Assembly (NCBI GenBank): GCA_947491825.1 | Contig: CANLLM010000004.1 | Coordinates: 1-56,935, forward strand | Length of the DNA: 56,935 bases | Direction of reading: 5' to 3' | Source of the DNA: Bacteroidota bacterium | Lineage (GTDB): Bacteria > Bacteroidota > Bacteroidia > UKL13-3 | Shown: one piece after another, positions 6,948 to 15,473 of the stretch | How positions within the stretch are numbered: the first letter of the stretch is position 1 | Layout: each line of letters starts with the position of its first letter | The notes under the pieces: generated by a model | The model's database searches: none | What the model was told of the DNA's origin: nothing | The model's input: only the letters and a program-made list of their open reading frames with translations | Translations under genes and position numbers: made by a program

Positions 6948-8144
6948 ATGTACGGTAAATTACAACAACACTTACAACAAGAATTAGCTGATATTAAAGC
7001 AGCAGGATTATATAAAAGCGAGCGCATTATTGTATCGGAGCAGGGGGCAGAAATTACCTTAAATACTGGTCAAAGTGTGTTAAATTTTTGCGCCAATAAT
7101 TACTTGGGTTTATCATCTCATCCGCGTGTTAAAGAAGCTGCTAAAAAAGCTTTGGAAACCCATGGTTTTGGTGTTAGCAGTGTACGTTTTATTTGTGGTA
7201 CCCAAGATATTCATAAAGCATTAGAGAAAACCATTGCCGATTTTTATGGTACGGAAGATACCATTTTGTACGCAGCTGCTTTTGATGCAATGGGGGCGTT
7301 TTTGAACCTTTGTTTCAAGAGGCGGATGCCATTATTAGTGATGAGTTAAATCATGGCAAGTATTATTGATGGTGTGCGTTTGTGTAAGGCACAACGCTAC
7401 CGTTATAAAAACAATGATATGGCTGATTTGGAAACGCAATTAATTGCTGCCAACGAAAAAGGTGCTCGGTTTAAAATTATTGTAACCGATGGCGTGTTTA
7501 GCATGGATGGTTATGTGGCACAAATGGATAAAATTTGTGATTTAGCCGATAAATACGATGCGTTGGTCATGACGGATGAATGCCATAGTGCAGGATTTAT
7601 TGGTAAAACCGGAAGAGGCGTTCCTGAGTTGTGCAATGTAATGGGTCGTGTAGATATAATCACTGGAACCTTAGGCAAAGCTTTAGGCGGTGCAATGGGA
7701 GGATACACCACAGGTAAAAAAGAAATTATTGAATTGTTACGTCAACGCTCTCGCCCTTATTTATTTAGTAACTCATTGGCTCCGGCAATTGTTGGTGCAA
7801 GTATTGAAGTATTTAAATTGTTAAACGAAAGCACTGCATTACGTGATAAGTTAGAGATGAACGTTAATCAGTTTAAAGCTGGCATGCAAGCAGTTGGATT
7901 TGATTTACGCGGTGGCGCTAGTGCAATTGTTCCTGTCATGTTGTATGATGCAAAATTAGCGCAGGAAATGGCCAACCAATTACTAGATGAAGGCATTTAT
8001 GTAACAGGCTTCTTTTATCCTGTGGTACCTAAAAACTTAGCACGTATACGTGTGCAACTTTCTGCAGCACATGAGCCGCATCATATTGAAAAAGCCATTG
8101 CGGCATTTACCAAAGTGGGTAAAGAGTTAGGTGTTGTAAAATAA
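6948..8144 (+). pseudogene. kbl: Glycine C-acetyltransferase (2-amino-3-ketobutyrate CoA ligase), interrupted by a -1/+1 indel pair at ~7289 and ~7355; may be a sequencing artefact in an intact gene
   Basis: [41 protein letters not shown] (PLP lysine). ORFs 6948-7349 and 7353-8144 share a frame; the missing [22 protein letters not shown] is encoded in the shifted frame at 7289-7354. Confidence 0.85.
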
Positions 8145-8170
8145 TAACCAACAAAAATTAGTTTTTGCCG

Positions 8171-8194
8171 AAAACCCGCCAAGTGCGGATTTTT
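8171..8194 (+). terminator. Probable intrinsic terminator after kbl
   Basis: AAAAcCCGC-caagt-GCGGaTTTT hairpin with a T-tract. Confidence 0.6.
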
Positions 8195-8201
8195 CTGCGT
8201 A

Positions 8202-8262
8202 TTAACAATTTGGTAACAAATTATTGATGCTGCATTAACTTAAGGATAACTTTGGTTTAATC
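8202..8262 (+). promoter_or_regulatory. Six 11-bp-phased hexamer repeats (PhoB/OmpR-family-like binding array)
   Basis: TTAACA 8202, GTAACA 8213, TTGATG 8224 (degenerate), TTAACT 8235, ATAACT 8246, TTAATC 8257. Confidence 0.65.
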
Positions 8263-8263
8263 G

Positions 8264-8290
8264 TTTGAAGTGAAAGGTGGGGTACTTTTG
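8264..8290 (+). promoter_or_regulatory. Bacteroidota housekeeping-sigma promoter of the TBDR gene
   Basis: -7 element TACTTTTG at 8283-8290; upstream TTTG at 8264-8267; ATG at 8316. Confidence 0.6.
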
Positions 8291-8315
8291 TTCACGTTTT
8301 CACACACCTAAACAA

Positions 8316-11252
8316 ATGAGAATCACTTTACAAAAATTAATTACAACTGTTATAGCCTTAACCATCGGACTAGCAGCTTTTGCGCAAACCGGAAAAATTA
8401 ACGGAAAAGTAATCGATAAGAAAAATGGAGAAGAACTAATTGGTGTTTCGGTTAGTGTAGAGGGAACTTCCTTTGGTGCTTCAACCGACTTAGAAGGGAG
8501 ATTTAATATAGTTAACCTAAAGCCAGGCACATACAACCTAAATCTAAGTTATGTGGGATACATCAAAAAGCAATTGGTTGGTATAGTGGTTAAAGGAGGC
8601 GAATCATCAACCATCAATGTGGCATTAGAAGGGTCGTCAAAAGAATTGAGTGAAGTTGTAGTACAAGGTGAATTGAAAAAAGAAAGTGCCAGTGCATTAT
8701 TAATTCAACAAAAAAATTCAGTTACAGTCTCTGATGGTATTTCAGCTGATGTAATAAAAAAATCACCAGATAATACCACTAGTGATGCAATGAAACGTAT
8801 TAGTGGTACATCAATACAAGATAATAAATTTGCGATCATACGTGGTTTGAACGACCGTTATAATTCAGCATATATTAATGGTGCACCCCTTCCTAGTACT
8901 GAATCTGATCGTAAAGCATTTTCATTTGATATTATTCCTTCTAACATGGTCGATAATATGGTGATTACCAAATCAGGGTCTCCAGATTTGCCTGGTGATT
9001 TTACCGGAGGATTAATTACCATCAATACCAAAGACATTCCAGAAAAAAAATTCATTTCAGTGGGTTTTGGAACCAGTATTAATAGTATAACTACTGGGAA
9101 AAGTGGAATACAATCTACAACAACTGGCAAAACTGATTGGCTTGGTCTTGATGATGGAACGCGTAAAGTTCCCACAGATATCGCAGGACGTGGATTTTAC
9201 CATACTCAAACTATAGCTGAAAAAGCAGCGGCAAGTCAAAAATTTCAAGACAATTGGAGTACTAATCGCATATCATCACTTCCATTAAATTACTCCTTAC
9301 AAATTGCTGGTGGTAACATGTTTAAGTTTGGTAAGAAAAATGAGTTTGGATATATTTTATCTGGTTCATACAATAATAGTTACCGAAACACCTCCGTAGA
9401 TAGAAACAGATTCAATAAACCCATGATTGGGGATGAAAATCAGTTATTATCATCTTATACTGATGAAACAACAAAACATGAATTGCTTACAGGTGCTATG
9501 GCTAACTTTGGATTAAAGCTAAACGGAAATCATAAGTTTAGTTTTAAAAATGCTTACACCATCAATACAGAAAATGTTGCTCAAATAAGAACTGGGATTG
9601 ATAGTTATTTAGATGAACAAGTACCATTGGTTAAGAACACTTATCTATCTTATCAACAAAACCAATTATTTACTTCTCAATTAATAGGTGAACACTTTTT
9701 AACTAAATCGAAGCTTAAAGTAAAATGGGTGTTGAACTACAATAAAATTAAAAGAGATATTCCTGATTTTAGAAGGTTCTCTACACGTTCAACATTAATG
9801 GATCCTTCCACAGGTGAGTACACCCCTTATGGAGCTCAAGTATCAAATAGTATTGATATTACCCAAACGGGCAGGTTCTTTTCTACCTTAGATGAAAACA
9901 TCAAAAGTGCTGGCGCTGACTTTCAACTACCTATCGGTTTTTTTACAGGAAAAAAAATAAAAACAGTTGTTAAGGTTGGTGGATTCATTCAACAACGTAA
10001 AAGAGACTTTCAAGCACGTGCTTTTGGTTATCGTCTGCGTTTTGTTAGCGATCCCAATAGCGTGTACAATTACCAAAAATTTATACAGGGTAACCTTGAT
10101 ACCTTATTTAGTAAAAATAAGTTAAATGATACATTATATATTGACGAGGATTTTAGACCTCAAGATGTATATTCAGCTGAGTCGAACCTAAAGGCAGCTT
10201 ATGTAATGTTTGATCAACGTATGTTTAGTAGGTTTAGGGTGGTTTACGGTGCTCGTTTTGAATCATACCAGCAAATATTAAATACGTTTGAGTTAAATCA
10301 ATCACCACCAAAACCATTAACTATCGATACCACATTTAACGATATTCTTCCTTCGATTAACCTTACTTATGAGTTAACAGAAAAAGTTAATTTACGTTTA
10401 TCTGGTTTCAGAAGTTTGGCCAGACCTGAATTTAGAGAATTAGCTCCTTTTGCGTTTTATGATTTTAACCTGAATACCACCGTTAGTGGTAAGCCAAATT
10501 TGGCCCGCACAAGGATCAACAATTATGATTTTAGGTTTGAGTATTTCCCTGGCGAAGGGCAATTGATTTCTGGATCATTGTTTTATAAAGAATTTACCAA
10601 TGCCATAGAAAGCTTAAATGAATTACCAGGAAGTGATCCTCTGCTCTCTTATACAAGTGATGCAAATGCAACCAATTATGGCTTAGAGGTTGAAATCAGA
10701 AAAAACTTTGACTTTTTGGATAAGTTATTTGGCACCAAATTGTTGTTTAGAAACTTTATTTTCACCATGAATTATGCACGTATTTTTTCAGAGGTTAAAA
10801 TTGAAGGATCAGCTGCAGCTGCAGGTATAGGAACCCGTCCATTGCAGGGGCAATCACCAAGCATTATCAATTCAAGTATACAATACTATAATCCCAATAG
10901 TGGTTTGTCGGTTGCCATATTTGTTAACCGTGTAGGTAGACGTATTGCATTTGTAAGAGAAAAAAATGGCTTGATTCCTGATTTATGGGAGAATCCTAGA
11001 ACTGTGGTTGACCTTTCTATCGCACGTAAAATTTACAAAGGGTTAGAGGCTAAATTCACTATTGGTGATTTATTGGCTCAAGACTTAATATTTTACCAAG
11101 ACAACAACAAAAACGGTAAATTTGATGATGTAAGCATTAAACAACGTATAGACTCAAATATTCCAGCATCGGTAAAAGCAAATTTCGACAATACTGTTTA
11201 TCGCTTTACCAATGGTTACAATGTTAGCATTGGAGCAAGCTATAAATTCTAA
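8316..11252 (+). CDS. TonB-dependent receptor (N-terminal carboxypeptidase-regulatory-like domain, plug, beta-barrel)
   Basis: Signal peptide from ATG 8316 (the GTG at 8277 lies upstream of the -7 element); GKVIDKKNGEELIGVSV, plug motif SDAMKRISGTSIQDNKFAIIRGLNDRYN, LARPEFRELAPF, NYDFRFEYFP, C-terminal ASYKF. Confidence 0.92.
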   Translation: MRITLQKLITTVIALTIGLAAFAQTGKINGKVIDKKNGEELIGVSVSVEGTSFGASTDLEGRFNIVNLKPGTYNLNLSYVGYIKKQLVGIVVKGGESSTINVALEGSSKELSEVVVQGELKKESASALLIQQKNSVTVSDGISADVIKKSPDNTTSDAMKRISGTSIQDNKFAIIRGLNDRYNSAYINGAPLPSTESDRKAFSFDIIPSNMVDNMVITKSGSPDLPGDFTGGLITINTKDIPEKKFISVGFGTSINSITTGKSGIQSTTTGKTDWLGLDDGTRKVPTDIAGRGFYHTQTIAEKAAASQKFQDNWSTNRISSLPLNYSLQIAGGNMFKFGKKNEFGYILSGSYNNSYRNTSVDRNRFNKPMIGDENQLLSSYTDETTKHELLTGAMANFGLKLNGNHKFSFKNAYTINTENVAQIRTGIDSYLDEQVPLVKNTYLSYQQNQLFTSQLIGEHFLTKSKLKVKWVLNYNKIKRDIPDFRRFSTRSTLMDPSTGEYTPYGAQVSNSIDITQTGRFFSTLDENIKSAGADFQLPIGFFTGKKIKTVVKVGGFIQQRKRDFQARAFGYRLRFVSDPNSVYNYQKFIQGNLDTLFSKNKLNDTLYIDEDFRPQDVYSAESNLKAAYVMFDQRMFSRFRVVYGARFESYQQILNTFELNQSPPKPLTIDTTFNDILPSINLTYELTEKVNLRLSGFRSLARPEFRELAPFAFYDFNLNTTVSGKPNLARTRINNYDFRFEYFPGEGQLISGSLFYKEFTNAIESLNELPGSDPLLSYTSDANATNYGLEVEIRKNFDFLDKLFGTKLLFRNFIFTMNYARIFSEVKIEGSAAAAGIGTRPLQGQSPSIINSSIQYYNPNSGLSVAIFVNRVGRRIAFVREKNGLIPDLWENPRTVVDLSIARKIYKGLEAKFTIGDLLAQDLIFYQDNNKNGKFDDVSIKQRIDSNIPASVKANFDNTVYRFTNGYNVSIGASYKF

Positions 11253-11299: not shown

Positions 11300-11396
11300 C
11301 TGTATAGTTAAGTTAGATATTTAATTAATCATACTTCTTTTATGCTAGTTATTGATTCCTACTTCACCGCGAATTGAAACCCATACTTACCAAACC

Positions 11397-11452
11397 TTAA
11401 CTTTTAATTAATATTAAAGTAAGCATTACTAAATATACTGCATTTAATTTTG
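11397..11452 (+). promoter_or_regulatory. Three 11-bp-phased hexamers plus -7 promoter element of the T9SS beta-helix gene
   Basis: TTAACT 11397, TTAATA 11408, GTAAGC 11419; TAATTTTG at 11445-11452; same 26-bp box-to-(-7) distance as the TBDR promoter. Confidence 0.6.
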
Positions 11453-11468
11453 TGCAAAACTTATATAT

Positions 11469-14400
11469 ATGAAAAAACTCAACTTATTATTGATTACCTT
11501 GGTTTTTGCTGTAAGTGCAGTATTTGCGCAAAAGGTAAGGACCATTTCTGGTAGTATTACCAATGATGTTACTTTCTTCAACGATACCATTTATACTTTA
11601 GATGGTTATGTTTTTGTTAAAAACAATGCAACACTTACCATTCAACCAGGTACCATTGTTAAAGGTAAAGCCGGTAATAAATCTACATTGATTATTACCC
11701 GTAATGGTAAAATTAATGCAAATGGTACGTCTAATCAACCCATAATTTTTACATCTGAAAAGCTGGCTGGCCAACGTGCAAAAGGTGATTGGGGCGGTTT
11801 GGTAATTTTAGGTAAAGCGATACTTAATCGTCCTACTGATTGCTCAACTTGTCCAGGTTCTGCAATTGCTGCTAACGAGGCAGGAATACAAAATGCAATA
11901 GAAGGTGATATTGACAATGCAAACGGTGATGGTTTATACGGAGGCACTGATAGTACTCACAATGCAGGTATTTTAAAATTTGTTCGTATAGAATTTGCTG
12001 GAACGGTAATTACACCAGGTAACGAAATCAATGGATTAACCATGGGTGCTTTAGGTTCAGTTACTACCATTGAAAATGTTCAGGTTTCATTTGCTGATGA
12101 TGACGGATTTGAGTGGTTTGGTGGAAGTGTAAATGCAAAATGGTTAGTTTCTAACCGCAACGTAGATGACGACTTAGACGTAGATTTTGGTTTCAAAGGT
12201 AAAGTACAATTTGCCATCGTATTGCGTGACTCTAATCTATATGATATTGGAAGTGGTCCAACTACAAATGGTTTTGAATCAGACAATGATGGATCAGGAT
12301 CTGAGGCTAAACCATTTACCGACCCAACATTTTCAAATGTTACTGTAGTAGGTCCATTAGCTAACGGAACTGCATTAAGTACAGCAAACTCATTCCAAAA
12401 CGGAGCCCGTATCCGCAGAAACTCATCAACCTCTATATTCAACTCTATTATCATGGGCTACCCTGATGGATTGTTTGTAGATGGTACCCGTACAGGACAA
12501 AAATTTGCCACTGATTCAATGATGTTCCGCAACAATATTTTAGCCGGTAACTTAAGAGCTGTAAACAACACTTCATCTAATGTTGCTACTGTTAGATCTA
12601 ATATTTTTAGTCAAGGTACTGATTCTTTGTTTTCTGCAAATGGCGTGTTAACAAACGCTTTTAACTATACCAATCCTAATTTTTTACCTGCTACTGGTTC
12701 TGTTGCTTTATCAGGTGCTGCATTTACAGCCCCTCGTATAGCTGATAGTTACTTTACACCAACTACATACCGTGGTGCTATGGGTACTGATGATTGGACA
12801 AAATGCTGGTGTAACTTTAACCCAAATGCAGCCAATTATGATATAGCTCCATTGAATAACTTCGTTCCTGTTGTCGATGCAAGTAATGATACAACCATTT
12901 GTATTGGTAAAACCGTAACAATTGGTAAAGATTTGGGACTAGTAGGTTACAGCTATTCATGGTCTCCAACTGCGGGTTTAAGCAATGCAACAATTGCTCG
13001 CCCTGTTGTAAATATTAATACAACAACCAAATATTTTGTAACAGTAACAGACAATGCAACTGGTTGCAAAAAAACAGATAGTATCACTGTAACGATTTCT
13101 CCATTGCCGACTGTTGATTTCAGTTCATCATTAGGTTCAAATGGTTCGGTTTCTTTCTTAAATGCTTCTACCAATGCTGCAACTTACAGCTGGACTTTTG
13201 GCGATGGGGGAACTTCAACTGTTGCTAACCCAACTAGACAATATTCTACAAATGGAACTTTTCAAGTAAAACTAATTGTAACAAGTGCAAACGGATGTGT
13301 AGCACAAACAATCAAACAAATTGTAGTAACAGGTATTAATTCTCCGGTTAAAGCATTATCAGGTGAGATTACAACAAATACCACTTTATTCCGTGATACG
13401 ATATATACCTTAAATGGTTACGTGTTTGTTAAAAACAATGCAACATTAACCATTCAATCAGGTACCATTATTAAAGGTGGTGCAGATAAAGCATCGTTAA
13501 TCATTACCCGTAATGGTAAAATTGAGGCAAATGGAACTAAAAATCAACCTATTGTTTTCACTTCGGCAAAAGCTGCTGGTCAACGTGCCAAAGGTGATTG
13601 GGGAGGTTTAATCATTTTAGGTAAAGCCAAAGTTAATCGTCCTACAGATTGCTCAACTTGTCCTGGTAGTGCAATTGCTGCTAATGAGGCAGGTATACAA
13701 AATGCAATAGAAGGTGATATAGATAACGCAAATGGCGATGGCTTATATGGTGGTAATGATGATACGCACAATGCTGGTACTTTAAAATACGTTCGTTTAG
13801 AGTTCGGAGGAACAGTAATCACCCCAGGTAACGAAATCAATGGTTTAACCATGGGTGCTTTAGGTTCAGCTACCACATTAGAAAATATTCAAGTATCCTT
13901 TGCTGATGATGACGGATTTGAGTGGTTTGGTGGTAATGTAAATGGTAGAAACTTAATTTCATTCCGTAACGTAGATGACGATTTAGATGTTGATTTTGGA
14001 TTTTCTGGTAAGGTACAAAACGCCATTGTTTTGCGTGACTCTAATCTATATGATATTGGAAGTGGTCCAACTACTAACGGTTTCGAATCTGACAATGATG
14101 GATCAGGAACAGAATCTAAACCATATACTGATCCAACATTCTCTAATGTTACAGTTGTTGGCCCATTAGCTAACGGAACTGCATTAAGCACATCAAACTC
14201 ATTCCAAAACGGAGCTCGTATCCGCAGAAACTCATCAACCTCTATATTCAACTCTATTATCATGGGCTACCCTGATGGATTGTTTGTTGATGGTACCCGT
14301 ACAGGACAAAAATTTGCCAATGACTCTATGATGTTCCGTAACAATATCTTGGCTGGTAACTTAAGAGCTGTTAACAATAGCTCTGCTAATGCTTCATCTG

Positions 14401-15473
14401 TAAGGGCTAGCATTGTTGCTAACGGTTGCGATACATTAACCTCAGCAAATGGTGTGTTGGGAAATCCATTCAACTATACCAATCCTAACTTTGCTCCAGC
14501 TCCAAGTTCAATTGCATTATCTGGAGCAAGCTTTACAGCAAATCGTTTAAATGATCCTTTCTTCAAGCAAACTTCACATAGAGGTGCTTTAAGTGCTAAT
14601 CCTGATAGCAACTGGACAGACTGCTGGTCAAATTTCGACCCGCAATTAGAGGGATATACATCTGCTCCATACAATAGACCAGGTGCTTTAGCCGGATTTA
14701 CAGCAACAAACGGAACTGGTAGAACAGTAAACTTTACAAATACTTCTTCAAATGCAGTAGCCTATTTCTGGAACTTTGGTGTTACCAATTCAACAACTGA
14801 TACCAGTGTTGCAGCTAACCCTTCATTTGTCTATCCATCAAACGGAAGTTATAATGCTACCCTTACAGCCTTAAGTCCATGTGGTAAAGCTACTTTTGGT
14901 GTAACTGTTGTAGTAAACGATGCTTCTTCTAACCCGGTTGCTGATTTCACATATGTGCAAAGCGCAACAACTGGTTCACGTGAGTTTACTTTCACTAATA
15001 CTACTGACGAAAAAGGATTTGTAACTACTTACCGCTGGGATTTTGGAGTAGCGTCTTCATCAGCTGACACTTCAACAGTTAAAAATCCGGTGTTCAATTT
15101 CCCTGCTAGTGGATCTTACACGGTTACTTTAATTGCAACAGGTACTGCTGGTGCTGATACCATTAGTAAAGTGTTAAATGTAACTCCAGTAGGTATTAAA
15201 GAAATTTCTTCTACAATTAGTAACGTAACATTGTATCCAAATCCAACTTCAAACATCACCAACGTTTCGTTTGATTTAACTGAGAATACAAATGTTGCCA
15301 TTAACTTATATGATATGAGCGGAAGACTTGTAAAAGCAATTCCAACTCAATACTTAACTAGTGGTAATAACAGCATAGCTATTGAAACATCAGAAGTAAA
15401 TGCAGGTGTATACTTTGCAAACATTACTACCGATAAATTTAGCAAGACATATCGTTTGGTGATTATTAAATAA
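11469..15473 (+). CDS. T9SS-secreted protein: two tandem beta-helix domains of the TBDR-associated family, an Ig/SprB-like repeat, three PKD domains and a T9SS type A CTD
   Basis: Signal VFA|Q; duplicated GDWGGLxILGKA...EFxG...NEINGLTMG...DDDGFEWFGG...DDDLDVDFG...GFESDN domains 1809-1812 nt apart; PKD motifs YSWTFGDG, YFWNFG, YRWDFG; CTD LYPNPTS...GVYFANI...LVIIK. Confidence 0.88.
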   Translation: MKKLNLLLITLVFAVSAVFAQKVRTISGSITNDVTFFNDTIYTLDGYVFVKNNATLTIQPGTIVKGKAGNKSTLIITRNGKINANGTSNQPIIFTSEKLAGQRAKGDWGGLVILGKAILNRPTDCSTCPGSAIAANEAGIQNAIEGDIDNANGDGLYGGTDSTHNAGILKFVRIEFAGTVITPGNEINGLTMGALGSVTTIENVQVSFADDDGFEWFGGSVNAKWLVSNRNVDDDLDVDFGFKGKVQFAIVLRDSNLYDIGSGPTTNGFESDNDGSGSEAKPFTDPTFSNVTVVGPLANGTALSTANSFQNGARIRRNSSTSIFNSIIMGYPDGLFVDGTRTGQKFATDSMMFRNNILAGNLRAVNNTSSNVATVRSNIFSQGTDSLFSANGVLTNAFNYTNPNFLPATGSVALSGAAFTAPRIADSYFTPTTYRGAMGTDDWTKCWCNFNPNAANYDIAPLNNFVPVVDASNDTTICIGKTVTIGKDLGLVGYSYSWSPTAGLSNATIARPVVNINTTTKYFVTVTDNATGCKKTDSITVTISPLPTVDFSSSLGSNGSVSFLNASTNAATYSWTFGDGGTSTVANPTRQYSTNGTFQVKLIVTSANGCVAQTIKQIVVTGINSPVKALSGEITTNTTLFRDTIYTLNGYVFVKNNATLTIQSGTIIKGGADKASLIITRNGKIEANGTKNQPIVFTSAKAAGQRAKGDWGGLIILGKAKVNRPTDCSTCPGSAIAANEAGIQNAIEGDIDNANGDGLYGGNDDTHNAGTLKYVRLEFGGTVITPGNEINGLTMGALGSATTLENIQVSFADDDGFEWFGGNVNGRNLISFRNVDDDLDVDFGFSGKVQNAIVLRDSNLYDIGSGPTTNGFESDNDGSGTESKPYTDPTFSNVTVVGPLANGTALSTSNSFQNGARIRRNSSTSIFNSIIMGYPDGLFVDGTRTGQKFANDSMMFRNNILAGNLRAVNNSSANASSVRASIVANGCDTLTSANGVLGNPFNYTNPNFAPAPSSIALSGASFTANRLNDPFFKQTSHRGALSANPDSNWTDCWSNFDPQLEGYTSAPYNRPGALAGFTATNGTGRTVNFTNTSSNAVAYFWNFGVTNSTTDTSVAANPSFVYPSNGSYNATLTALSPCGKATFGVTVVVNDASSNPVADFTYVQSATTGSREFTFTNTTDEKGFVTTYRWDFGVASSSADTSTVKNPVFNFPASGSYTVTLIATGTAGADTISKVLNVTPVGIKEISSTISNVTLYPNPTSNITNVSFDLTENTNVAINLYDMSGRLVKAIPTQYLTSGNNSIAIETSEVNAGVYFANITTDKFSKTYRLVIIK

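Follow-up and report, generated by a model that had tools for sequence, protein, structure and literature searches.

In the window, by which we mean the whole 56,935-nucleotide stretch that was analysed, a gene for a TonB-dependent receptor follows a kbl-like gene that ends at 8144, and the DNA between them carries a terminator-like hairpin, an array of six short units and a -7 promoter box. The receptor starts at an ATG at 8316 and is followed by a gene for a secreted partner protein with an array and a -7 box of its own. The features of the two promoters are as follows.

8175-8194, forward strand: terminator-like hairpin CCGC-caagt-GCGG plus T-run, which ends the upstream kbl-like gene (read from the sequence).
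8202-8207, forward strand: unit 1, TTAACA (11-mer 8200-8210); TTAAC in 19 of 22 aligned promoters.
8213-8218, forward strand: unit 2, GTAACA; (G/T)TAACA is kept in the alignment.
8224-8229, forward strand: unit 3, TTGATG, a weak unit; the A at its fourth position is invariant in the alignment.
8235-8240, forward strand: unit 4, TTAACT; the T, A and A columns are invariant.
8246-8251, forward strand: unit 5, ATAACT, the best-scoring unit (9.2 bits).
8257-8262, forward strand: unit 6, TTAATC, promoter-proximal and in the place of the -33 element; TTAAC in most orthologs.
8283-8290, forward strand: -7 box TACTTTTG, of the Bacteroidota TAnnTTTG type; TA(C/G)(T/C)TTTG in orthologs.
8316-11252, forward strand: TonB-dependent receptor, 978 aa, with CarboxypepD_reg-like and Plug domains (Pfam).
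11395-11427, forward strand: three-unit array, TTAACT at 11397, TTAATA at 11408 and GTAAGC at 11419 (PWM scan).
11445-11452, forward strand: partner-gene -7 box TAATTTTG, 26 bp downstream of the start of the last unit.
11469-15473, forward strand: secreted partner protein, 1334 aa, with PKD domains and a type IX secretion sorting tail (Pfam, NCBIfam).

The receptor scores 220 bits against NCBIfam TIGR01782, under the cut-off of 310. The kbl-like gene upstream (2-amino-3-ketobutyrate CoA ligase type; window 6948-8144) reads as two open reading frames: some 20 residues ahead of an in-frame stop at 7347-7349 seem to be read in the wrong frame, and an additional G near 7355 brings the reading back into register. 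This pair of compensating frameshifts reflects either an assembly error or a decaying gene. The terminator-like hairpin is kept as CCCGCCAAGTGCGGGTTTTT in the promoters of the same genus, and the array starts directly after its T-run.

The six hexamers follow one another at a step of exactly 11 bp, and in 11-bp steps from 8202 the array reads TTAACAATTTG, GTAACAAATTA, TTGATGCTGCA, TTAACTTAAGG, ATAACTTTGGT and TTAATCGTTTG. An earlier note on this DNA had described hexamers at these six positions, five of them of the form (T/G/A)TAA(C/T)N, and this is confirmed, as five of the six read NTAAYN. Its choice of the hexamer as the unit stands for the hexamers themselves but is too narrow for the conserved core, which comprises TTAAC plus a weaker ATT tail (11-mer nnTTAACATTn). 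The array had also been said to end beside the -33 region, and indeed unit 6 sits in the place of the -33 element, starting 26 bp before the -7 box. This box conforms to the TAnnTTTG motif defined by Bayley et al. (2000), as cited in PMC3547664. If transcription begins, as expected, a few bases past 8290, the array covers approximately -94 to -33. A properly spaced -33 TTTG is absent from the receptor promoter; the TTTG at 8264-8267 lies just 15 nt from the -7 box and, in the promoter alignment, is not kept outside the genus.

General-purpose searches make little of this region. Consensus scans of 8000-8450 for sigma-70 promoters and intrinsic terminators, which do not cover Bacteroidota-type promoters, made no call; the receptor promoter is of the Bacteroidota type. 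The repeat finder gave two weak inverted repeats, neither of them conserved, and listed no direct-repeat family, the units being too short for it. An Rfam search returned a chance sub-threshold match alone, with no family matching the array region.

The decisive evidence on the nature of the array comes from conservation, which the earlier note had proposed as a check. Orthologs of the receptor are present in 50 of 61 relatives, and promoters of other genomes were read via alignments and pattern counts. The relatives that bear names are metagenome-assembled genomes from fresh water, a Ferruginibacter genome gives a match of 39%, and the source organism probably belongs to the Chitinophagales. 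Alignment A3 holds 22 orthologous promoters (57-96% protein identity), all from one family but from several of its genera; no indel interrupts the 66-bp array in any of the 22, and all six units keep their register. An invariant A recurs every 11 bp in every sequence (positions 51, 62, 73, 84, 95 and 106 in the aligned stretch's own numbering), and the columns of the TAAC core average 1.72 bits, compared with 0.81 for the remaining columns; the spacers vary. These promoters have kept the -7 box as well. Because the units are conserved and in register in the relatives, the array is a selected cis element built of direct repeats. Its weak member, unit 3, is TTGAT or TTGAC in most same-genus sequences and TTAAC or CTAAC in G002, G024 and G017; G002, of the same genus, has TTAAC here, and a TTAAC/CTAAC consensus is also found in some other genera. 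This conserved weak middle site may tune cooperativity.

Boxes of this type also accompany more remote receptors. Homologs in a Bacteroidales and an Ignavibacteriaceae genome have TTAAC-type boxes 11 bp apart upstream. On L131 (Ignavibacteriaceae; 1320-1390), at least four phased units, GTTAAC, GTAAC, TTAAC and TTAAC, stand at exact 11-bp steps before a receptor homolog of 35% identity, so that the motif reaches past the class Bacteroidia.

A unit PWM was built from the orthologous receptor promoters, and the whole genome was scanned with it for tandem units. The unit profile, nnTTAACATTn, holds 1.1-1.9 bits at each TAAC core position and 0.1-0.6 elsewhere, and a periodic profile is likewise seen in a diverse promoter set. 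At period 11, 13 of the 18 tandem matches are intergenic; at periods 8-14, the intergenic count is 0-4. Genome-wide, the best three-unit match is the one upstream of a response-regulator/kinase operon on contig C28, which is discussed below, and the scan placed further arrays as follows.

Upstream of an OlsF-like aminolipid synthase (PWM scan).
Upstream of a 2423-aa protein with choice-of-anchor-I, phytase-like and 5'-nucleotidase domains (PWM scan).
Upstream of a choice-of-anchor-I lipoprotein (PWM scan).
Upstream of an LpxH-like, PlcP-like phosphoesterase (PWM scan).
Upstream of the receptor's downstream partner gene, at 11395-11427 (PWM scan).

A second search of the same genome, for exact TAnnTTTG boxes that have two units positioned as in the receptor promoter, returned the receptor itself plus three further promoters.

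PitA (TAnnTTTG box with two units).
A metallophosphoesterase with a Tat-like signal (TAnnTTTG box with two units).
A large type IX secreted protein with a PhoX domain (PF05787, 129.6 bits; TAnnTTTG box with two units).

The largest array in the genome is carried by the receptor and its partner. In many orthologous loci, PWM matches lie just downstream of the receptor gene, like the partner-gene array, and the four phased units upstream of olsF are conserved within the genus. The offset of 26 bp to a TAnnTTTG box is shared by the receptor, the partner, PitA, the PhoX-domain gene, the phosphoesterase with the Tat-like signal and, in two relatives (G041 and G056), pstC. The promoters of olsF and of the regulator itself break this register: their units lie nearer to, or over, -7-like octamers, and the sign of regulation there is therefore ambiguous. 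To judge from the predicted functions, the gene set looks like a phosphate-starvation regulon, with phosphatases, a phosphate carrier and phospholipid-replacing enzymes. Pho control of olsF is known from Serratia and Vibrio (PMC12971839), and flavobacteria are among the bacteria that remodel their lipids in the PlcP manner when phosphorus is deficient (PMC4796936).

Some PWM matches have no obvious link to phosphate, namely those at a WecA-like transferase, at an HTH protein and in the region upstream of metF. The good phased array at 9604-9647 of contig C57 (ACTTAACCCTT GAATAACCTTA AGTTAAGCAAA) is found 200 bp ahead of a metF-like gene, within a stretch of 480 bp that is free of genes, and this stretch might hold an uncalled small gene or a leader. 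A 627-aa protein on contig C65 was considered as a PhoX and set aside as uncertain, having no Pfam match and only a weak match to PhoX in the PDB (E ~3e-4).

The earlier note had looked to a genome-wide scan for hits at phosphate genes. That expectation holds for the PhoX-domain protein, the phosphoesterases, PitA and OlsF, but not for the pst genes: the classical core of the Pho regulon is missing from this genome. Domain and gene searches of its contigs found neither a PhoU domain nor pstC, and no pstS was found in it, the only PBP_like_2 protein over the cut-off being one that adjoins exbBD-tonB. Since pstC is absent in 33 of the 36 sampled genomes of the family, its loss is a family trait and not an assembly gap. 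G004, the only genome of the genus that has pstC, matched none of receptor, regulator and OlsF under the thresholds applied; it represents either a divergent lineage or a genome with a mis-binned contig.

Because pstC is lacking here, the check at pstS that the earlier note had suggested was moved to more distant relatives. Elsewhere in the class, in families other than this one, homologs of the regulator and of the receptor both have pst genes nearby; in G046, for example, the order is phoB-phoR-pstS-pstC-pstA, divergent from the receptor homolog. Phased TTAAC-like units precede the pst genes of G058, G041 and G056 (four in each), and in G052 three such units flank the regulator on the side that faces pst; in G046, no phased array was seen in the intergenic region before pstS. 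The last unit in G041 and G056 starts 26 bp before TATATTTG or TAAATTTG, an offset equal to that of the receptor promoter. A spacing control over 13 pst loci counted TTAAC-N6-TTAAY 16 times, the N5 form once and the N7 form not at all. As a cross-check against circularity, a profile was made from 15 pst-associated units alone, and it ranks 8200-8265 first among the six-unit arrays in the genome.

The operon that carries the best three-unit match includes the candidate regulator.

Contig C28, 21051-21725, reverse strand: PhoB-like response regulator, with a PhoR-like kinase gene adjacent.

The genome encodes four OmpR-type regulators, and PhoB models are the best matches for the C28 protein only; the other three are CusR-like, RprY-like or without an assigned family. 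The C28 protein reaches 229.5 bits against a cut-off of 296.2 for TIGR02154 and 219.8 against 270 for NF053854, below both, and both models score higher for it than for the other three. The kinase best matches PnpS and PhoR, under the NCBIfam cut-off (234 vs 334), and has no PAS domain. The motif CTTAACATTAACTTAACTTTTnCGTAAT before the operon is conserved in 21 genomes, which fits the autoregulation usual for phoBR. Orthologs of the regulator are found in 23 of the 24 other family genomes searched; in G046, G044 and G052, the orthologs (best matches, 56-63% identity) lie in or beside pst clusters, and remote receptor homologs lie beside regulator orthologs in relatives. At approximately 21739-21749 of C28, downstream of the units in the regulator promoter, there is a strongly conserved CGAATGTTACA, which on the opposite strand reads GTAACATTCG and so makes a good inverted unit; this site could be autoregulatory. 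The third 'unit' of the same promoter, GTAATATTG, also reads as a -7-like octamer.

From the conserved array, with its geometry and its repeated occurrence at phosphate genes, we infer, with a probability of about 0.84, that the array is a three-box Pho operator, bound most likely by the PhoB-like C28 regulator, and that it activates the receptor under phosphate limitation. The reading offered by the earlier note, a PhoB/OmpR-type direct-repeat operator that would activate under phosphate starvation, is supported by the conservation in 22 orthologs, by the motif at the regulator operon and the phosphate genes, and by the pst promoters of relatives. It is also possible that a real OmpR-family operator answers here to another regulator and another signal, such as envelope or metal stress, by way of the RprY-like, the CusR-like or the unassigned paralog. 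The OmpR/PhoB family as a whole uses direct repeats at 10-11 bp, and ArcA, PmrA and PhoP(Mg) sites also contain TAAC/TTAA-like cores; in addition, the C28 regulator scores under the curated PhoB cut-offs, and the genome holds three further regulators of the type. We nevertheless regard this assignment as unlikely, given that the motif stands upstream of pst operons, PhoX, phosphoesterases, OlsF and PitA, and of a regulator whose orthologs sit in phoBR-pst clusters, whereas the remaining three regulators have other best family matches.

We propose that the six units of the Pho operator would form three tandem Pho boxes, each made of two 11-bp direct-repeat units and each accommodating a single dimer, arranged head to tail, of a phosphorylated response regulator of the OmpR/PhoB family. 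By analogy with PhoB, one dimer would bind per pair of units (PMC4415409), and the array would thus hold three dimers. The C28 PhoB-like protein, with its neighbouring PhoR-like kinase, is the most likely regulator. The array would act like a class II activator site: when phosphate is limiting, the regulator would occupy it and bring in RNA polymerase. As the promoter has no proper -33 element and unit 6 lies in that place, activation by recruitment of RNA polymerase is the most likely mode. The receptor would then be switched on, and the secreted partner would be co-induced from its own three-unit array. This activation model agrees with the strong induction of Flavobacterium johnsoniae transporters on phosphate depletion (PMC8115612).

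A PhoB-type site might instead repress the receptor or merely tune it, with basal expression coming from a constitutive promoter. Regulators of the PhoB/PhoP family can repress, units overlap -7-like sequences at olsF and at the regulator promoter, and the short TTTG at 8264-8267 is at hand. At the receptor, however, the units lie wholly upstream of approximately -27 and end at the -33 place, which is an activation geometry, and this TTTG is poorly spaced for a -33 element (only 15 nt from the -7 box) and not conserved beyond the genus. The homologous Flavobacterium transporters, moreover, are induced approximately 250-fold on phosphate depletion (PMC8115612, Table 1). We therefore consider repression or mere tuning quite improbable, and we retain activation under phosphate limitation as the preferred reading.

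Statistics on the single sequence contribute little to this argument. At period 11, the 2.52-Mb genome holds a single array with five of six TAAY units, and the other periods from 6 to 23 yield none. Any comparable degenerate 4-mer at period 10 or 11, however, yields about 20 arrays per genome (about 0.45 per 57-kb window), and the lag-11 autocorrelation of the array region is only 0.34; the lone sequence therefore does not prove that the array is other than chance. Once the motif has been picked post hoc, these statistics are weak, with no significance after correction. Although such counts, the low autocorrelation and an 83% inverted repeat reported by the repeat finder (8201-8212 / 8217-8228) would suit an accident of AT-rich intergenic DNA, DNA curvature or a palindromic operator, we give these explanations next to no credence, because the TAAC cores are conserved amid variable spacers with zero indels in 22 genomes, the inverted repeat is lost in the orthologs, the same period and the same 26-bp offset recur at unrelated promoters, and protein identities of 57-72% exclude a recent-copy origin of the promoters.

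The proposed Pho operator can be set beside known systems. Pho boxes are tandem 11-nt direct repeats, and phoBR is autoregulated (PMC4415409). The E. coli Pho box (pstS, ugpB, phoA) likewise consists of tandem 11-nt units, two per regulator dimer, with several boxes in a row, and it takes the place of the -35 element before phosphate-acquisition genes, much as the array here stands at the -33 place. The two differ in core, CTGTCAT in E. coli and TTAAC(A)TT here, where the CTGTCAT consensus is not matched. They differ as well in promoter, which here is a Bacteroidota -33/-7 promoter with a fixed 26-bp offset to TAnnTTTG, and in target, which here is an outer-membrane TonB-dependent receptor in a genome in which no pstSCAB or phoU was found. 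The Bacillus subtilis PhoP box has the consensus TT(A/T/C)ACA, and units 1 and 2 of the array, TTAACA and GTAACA, resemble the Bacillus PhoP repeats. Both these boxes and those of cyanobacterial SphR/PhoB (PyTTAAPyPy) present a TTAA/TTAACA-type core per 11 bp and need at least three repeats; they come from another phylum, with another sigma factor and promoter type, and the resemblance is one of core sequence. Synechocystis PhoB needs tandem repeats with a TTAA core, and TTAA cores have been verified by EMSA (PMC11126600). On this comparison, the element would work like a Pho box though its core differs from the enterobacterial sequence, and it resembles the TTAA core of cyanobacteria.

Within the Bacteroidota, TonB-dependent transporters of F. 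johnsoniae are strongly induced by phosphate depletion, and one of them is encoded beside phoBR: the cluster comprises phoBR with the transporter Fjoh_0545 and the lipoprotein FII, and the other transporter is Fjoh_1368 (PMC8115612). These transporters have CarboxypepD_reg-like and Plug domains, as does the receptor here, a likeness by domain make-up. The PhoR of F. johnsoniae shows only HisKA and HATPase domains (PMC8115612), and so does the kinase here, which is without PAS. Fjoh_0545 adjoins phoBR, whereas the receptor here is not next to the regulator. The text of that paper defines no cis element, and the terms 'Pho box' and 'promoter' do not occur in it (PMC8115612). In Bacteroides fragilis, PhoB (BF1576) binds a pstC promoter fragment in EMSA and is needed for pstC induction, a single 512-bp fragment having been tested and no motif derived (PMC3547664). 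Our literature searches, whose scope stopped short of subscription journals and regulon databases, found no published sequence definition of a Bacteroidota Pho box. On these searches, what is new here is the sequence of the proposed Bacteroidota Pho box; the 11-bp direct-repeat kind of switch is already known.

In soils, lakes, oceans and the gut, Bacteroidota play a major part in recycling organic phosphorus. A rule of TTAAC units at 11-bp steps, the final unit starting 26 bp ahead of TAnnTTTG, would permit prediction of Pho regulons from genomes, including metagenome-assembled genomes of uncultured lineages. In the present genome, the rule points to a coherent set consisting of the receptor and its partner, PhoX-type and other secreted phosphatases, PitA and enzymes for phosphorus-free lipids. 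We also advance a wider hypothesis, to which we give somewhat less than even odds: that the TTAAC repeat, ending in a unit that starts 26 bp ahead of the -7 box, may serve as the Pho box of the whole phylum, that in this family, which has neither pstSCAB nor phoU, a PAS-less PhoR may sense phosphate without Pst-PhoU, and that the receptor and its partner may form the main Pho-controlled high-affinity route for phosphorus. PhoR is commonly taken to receive its phosphate signal from the Pst-PhoU system. A family that has retained PhoBR without this feed is thus a natural place to ask how phosphate is sensed.
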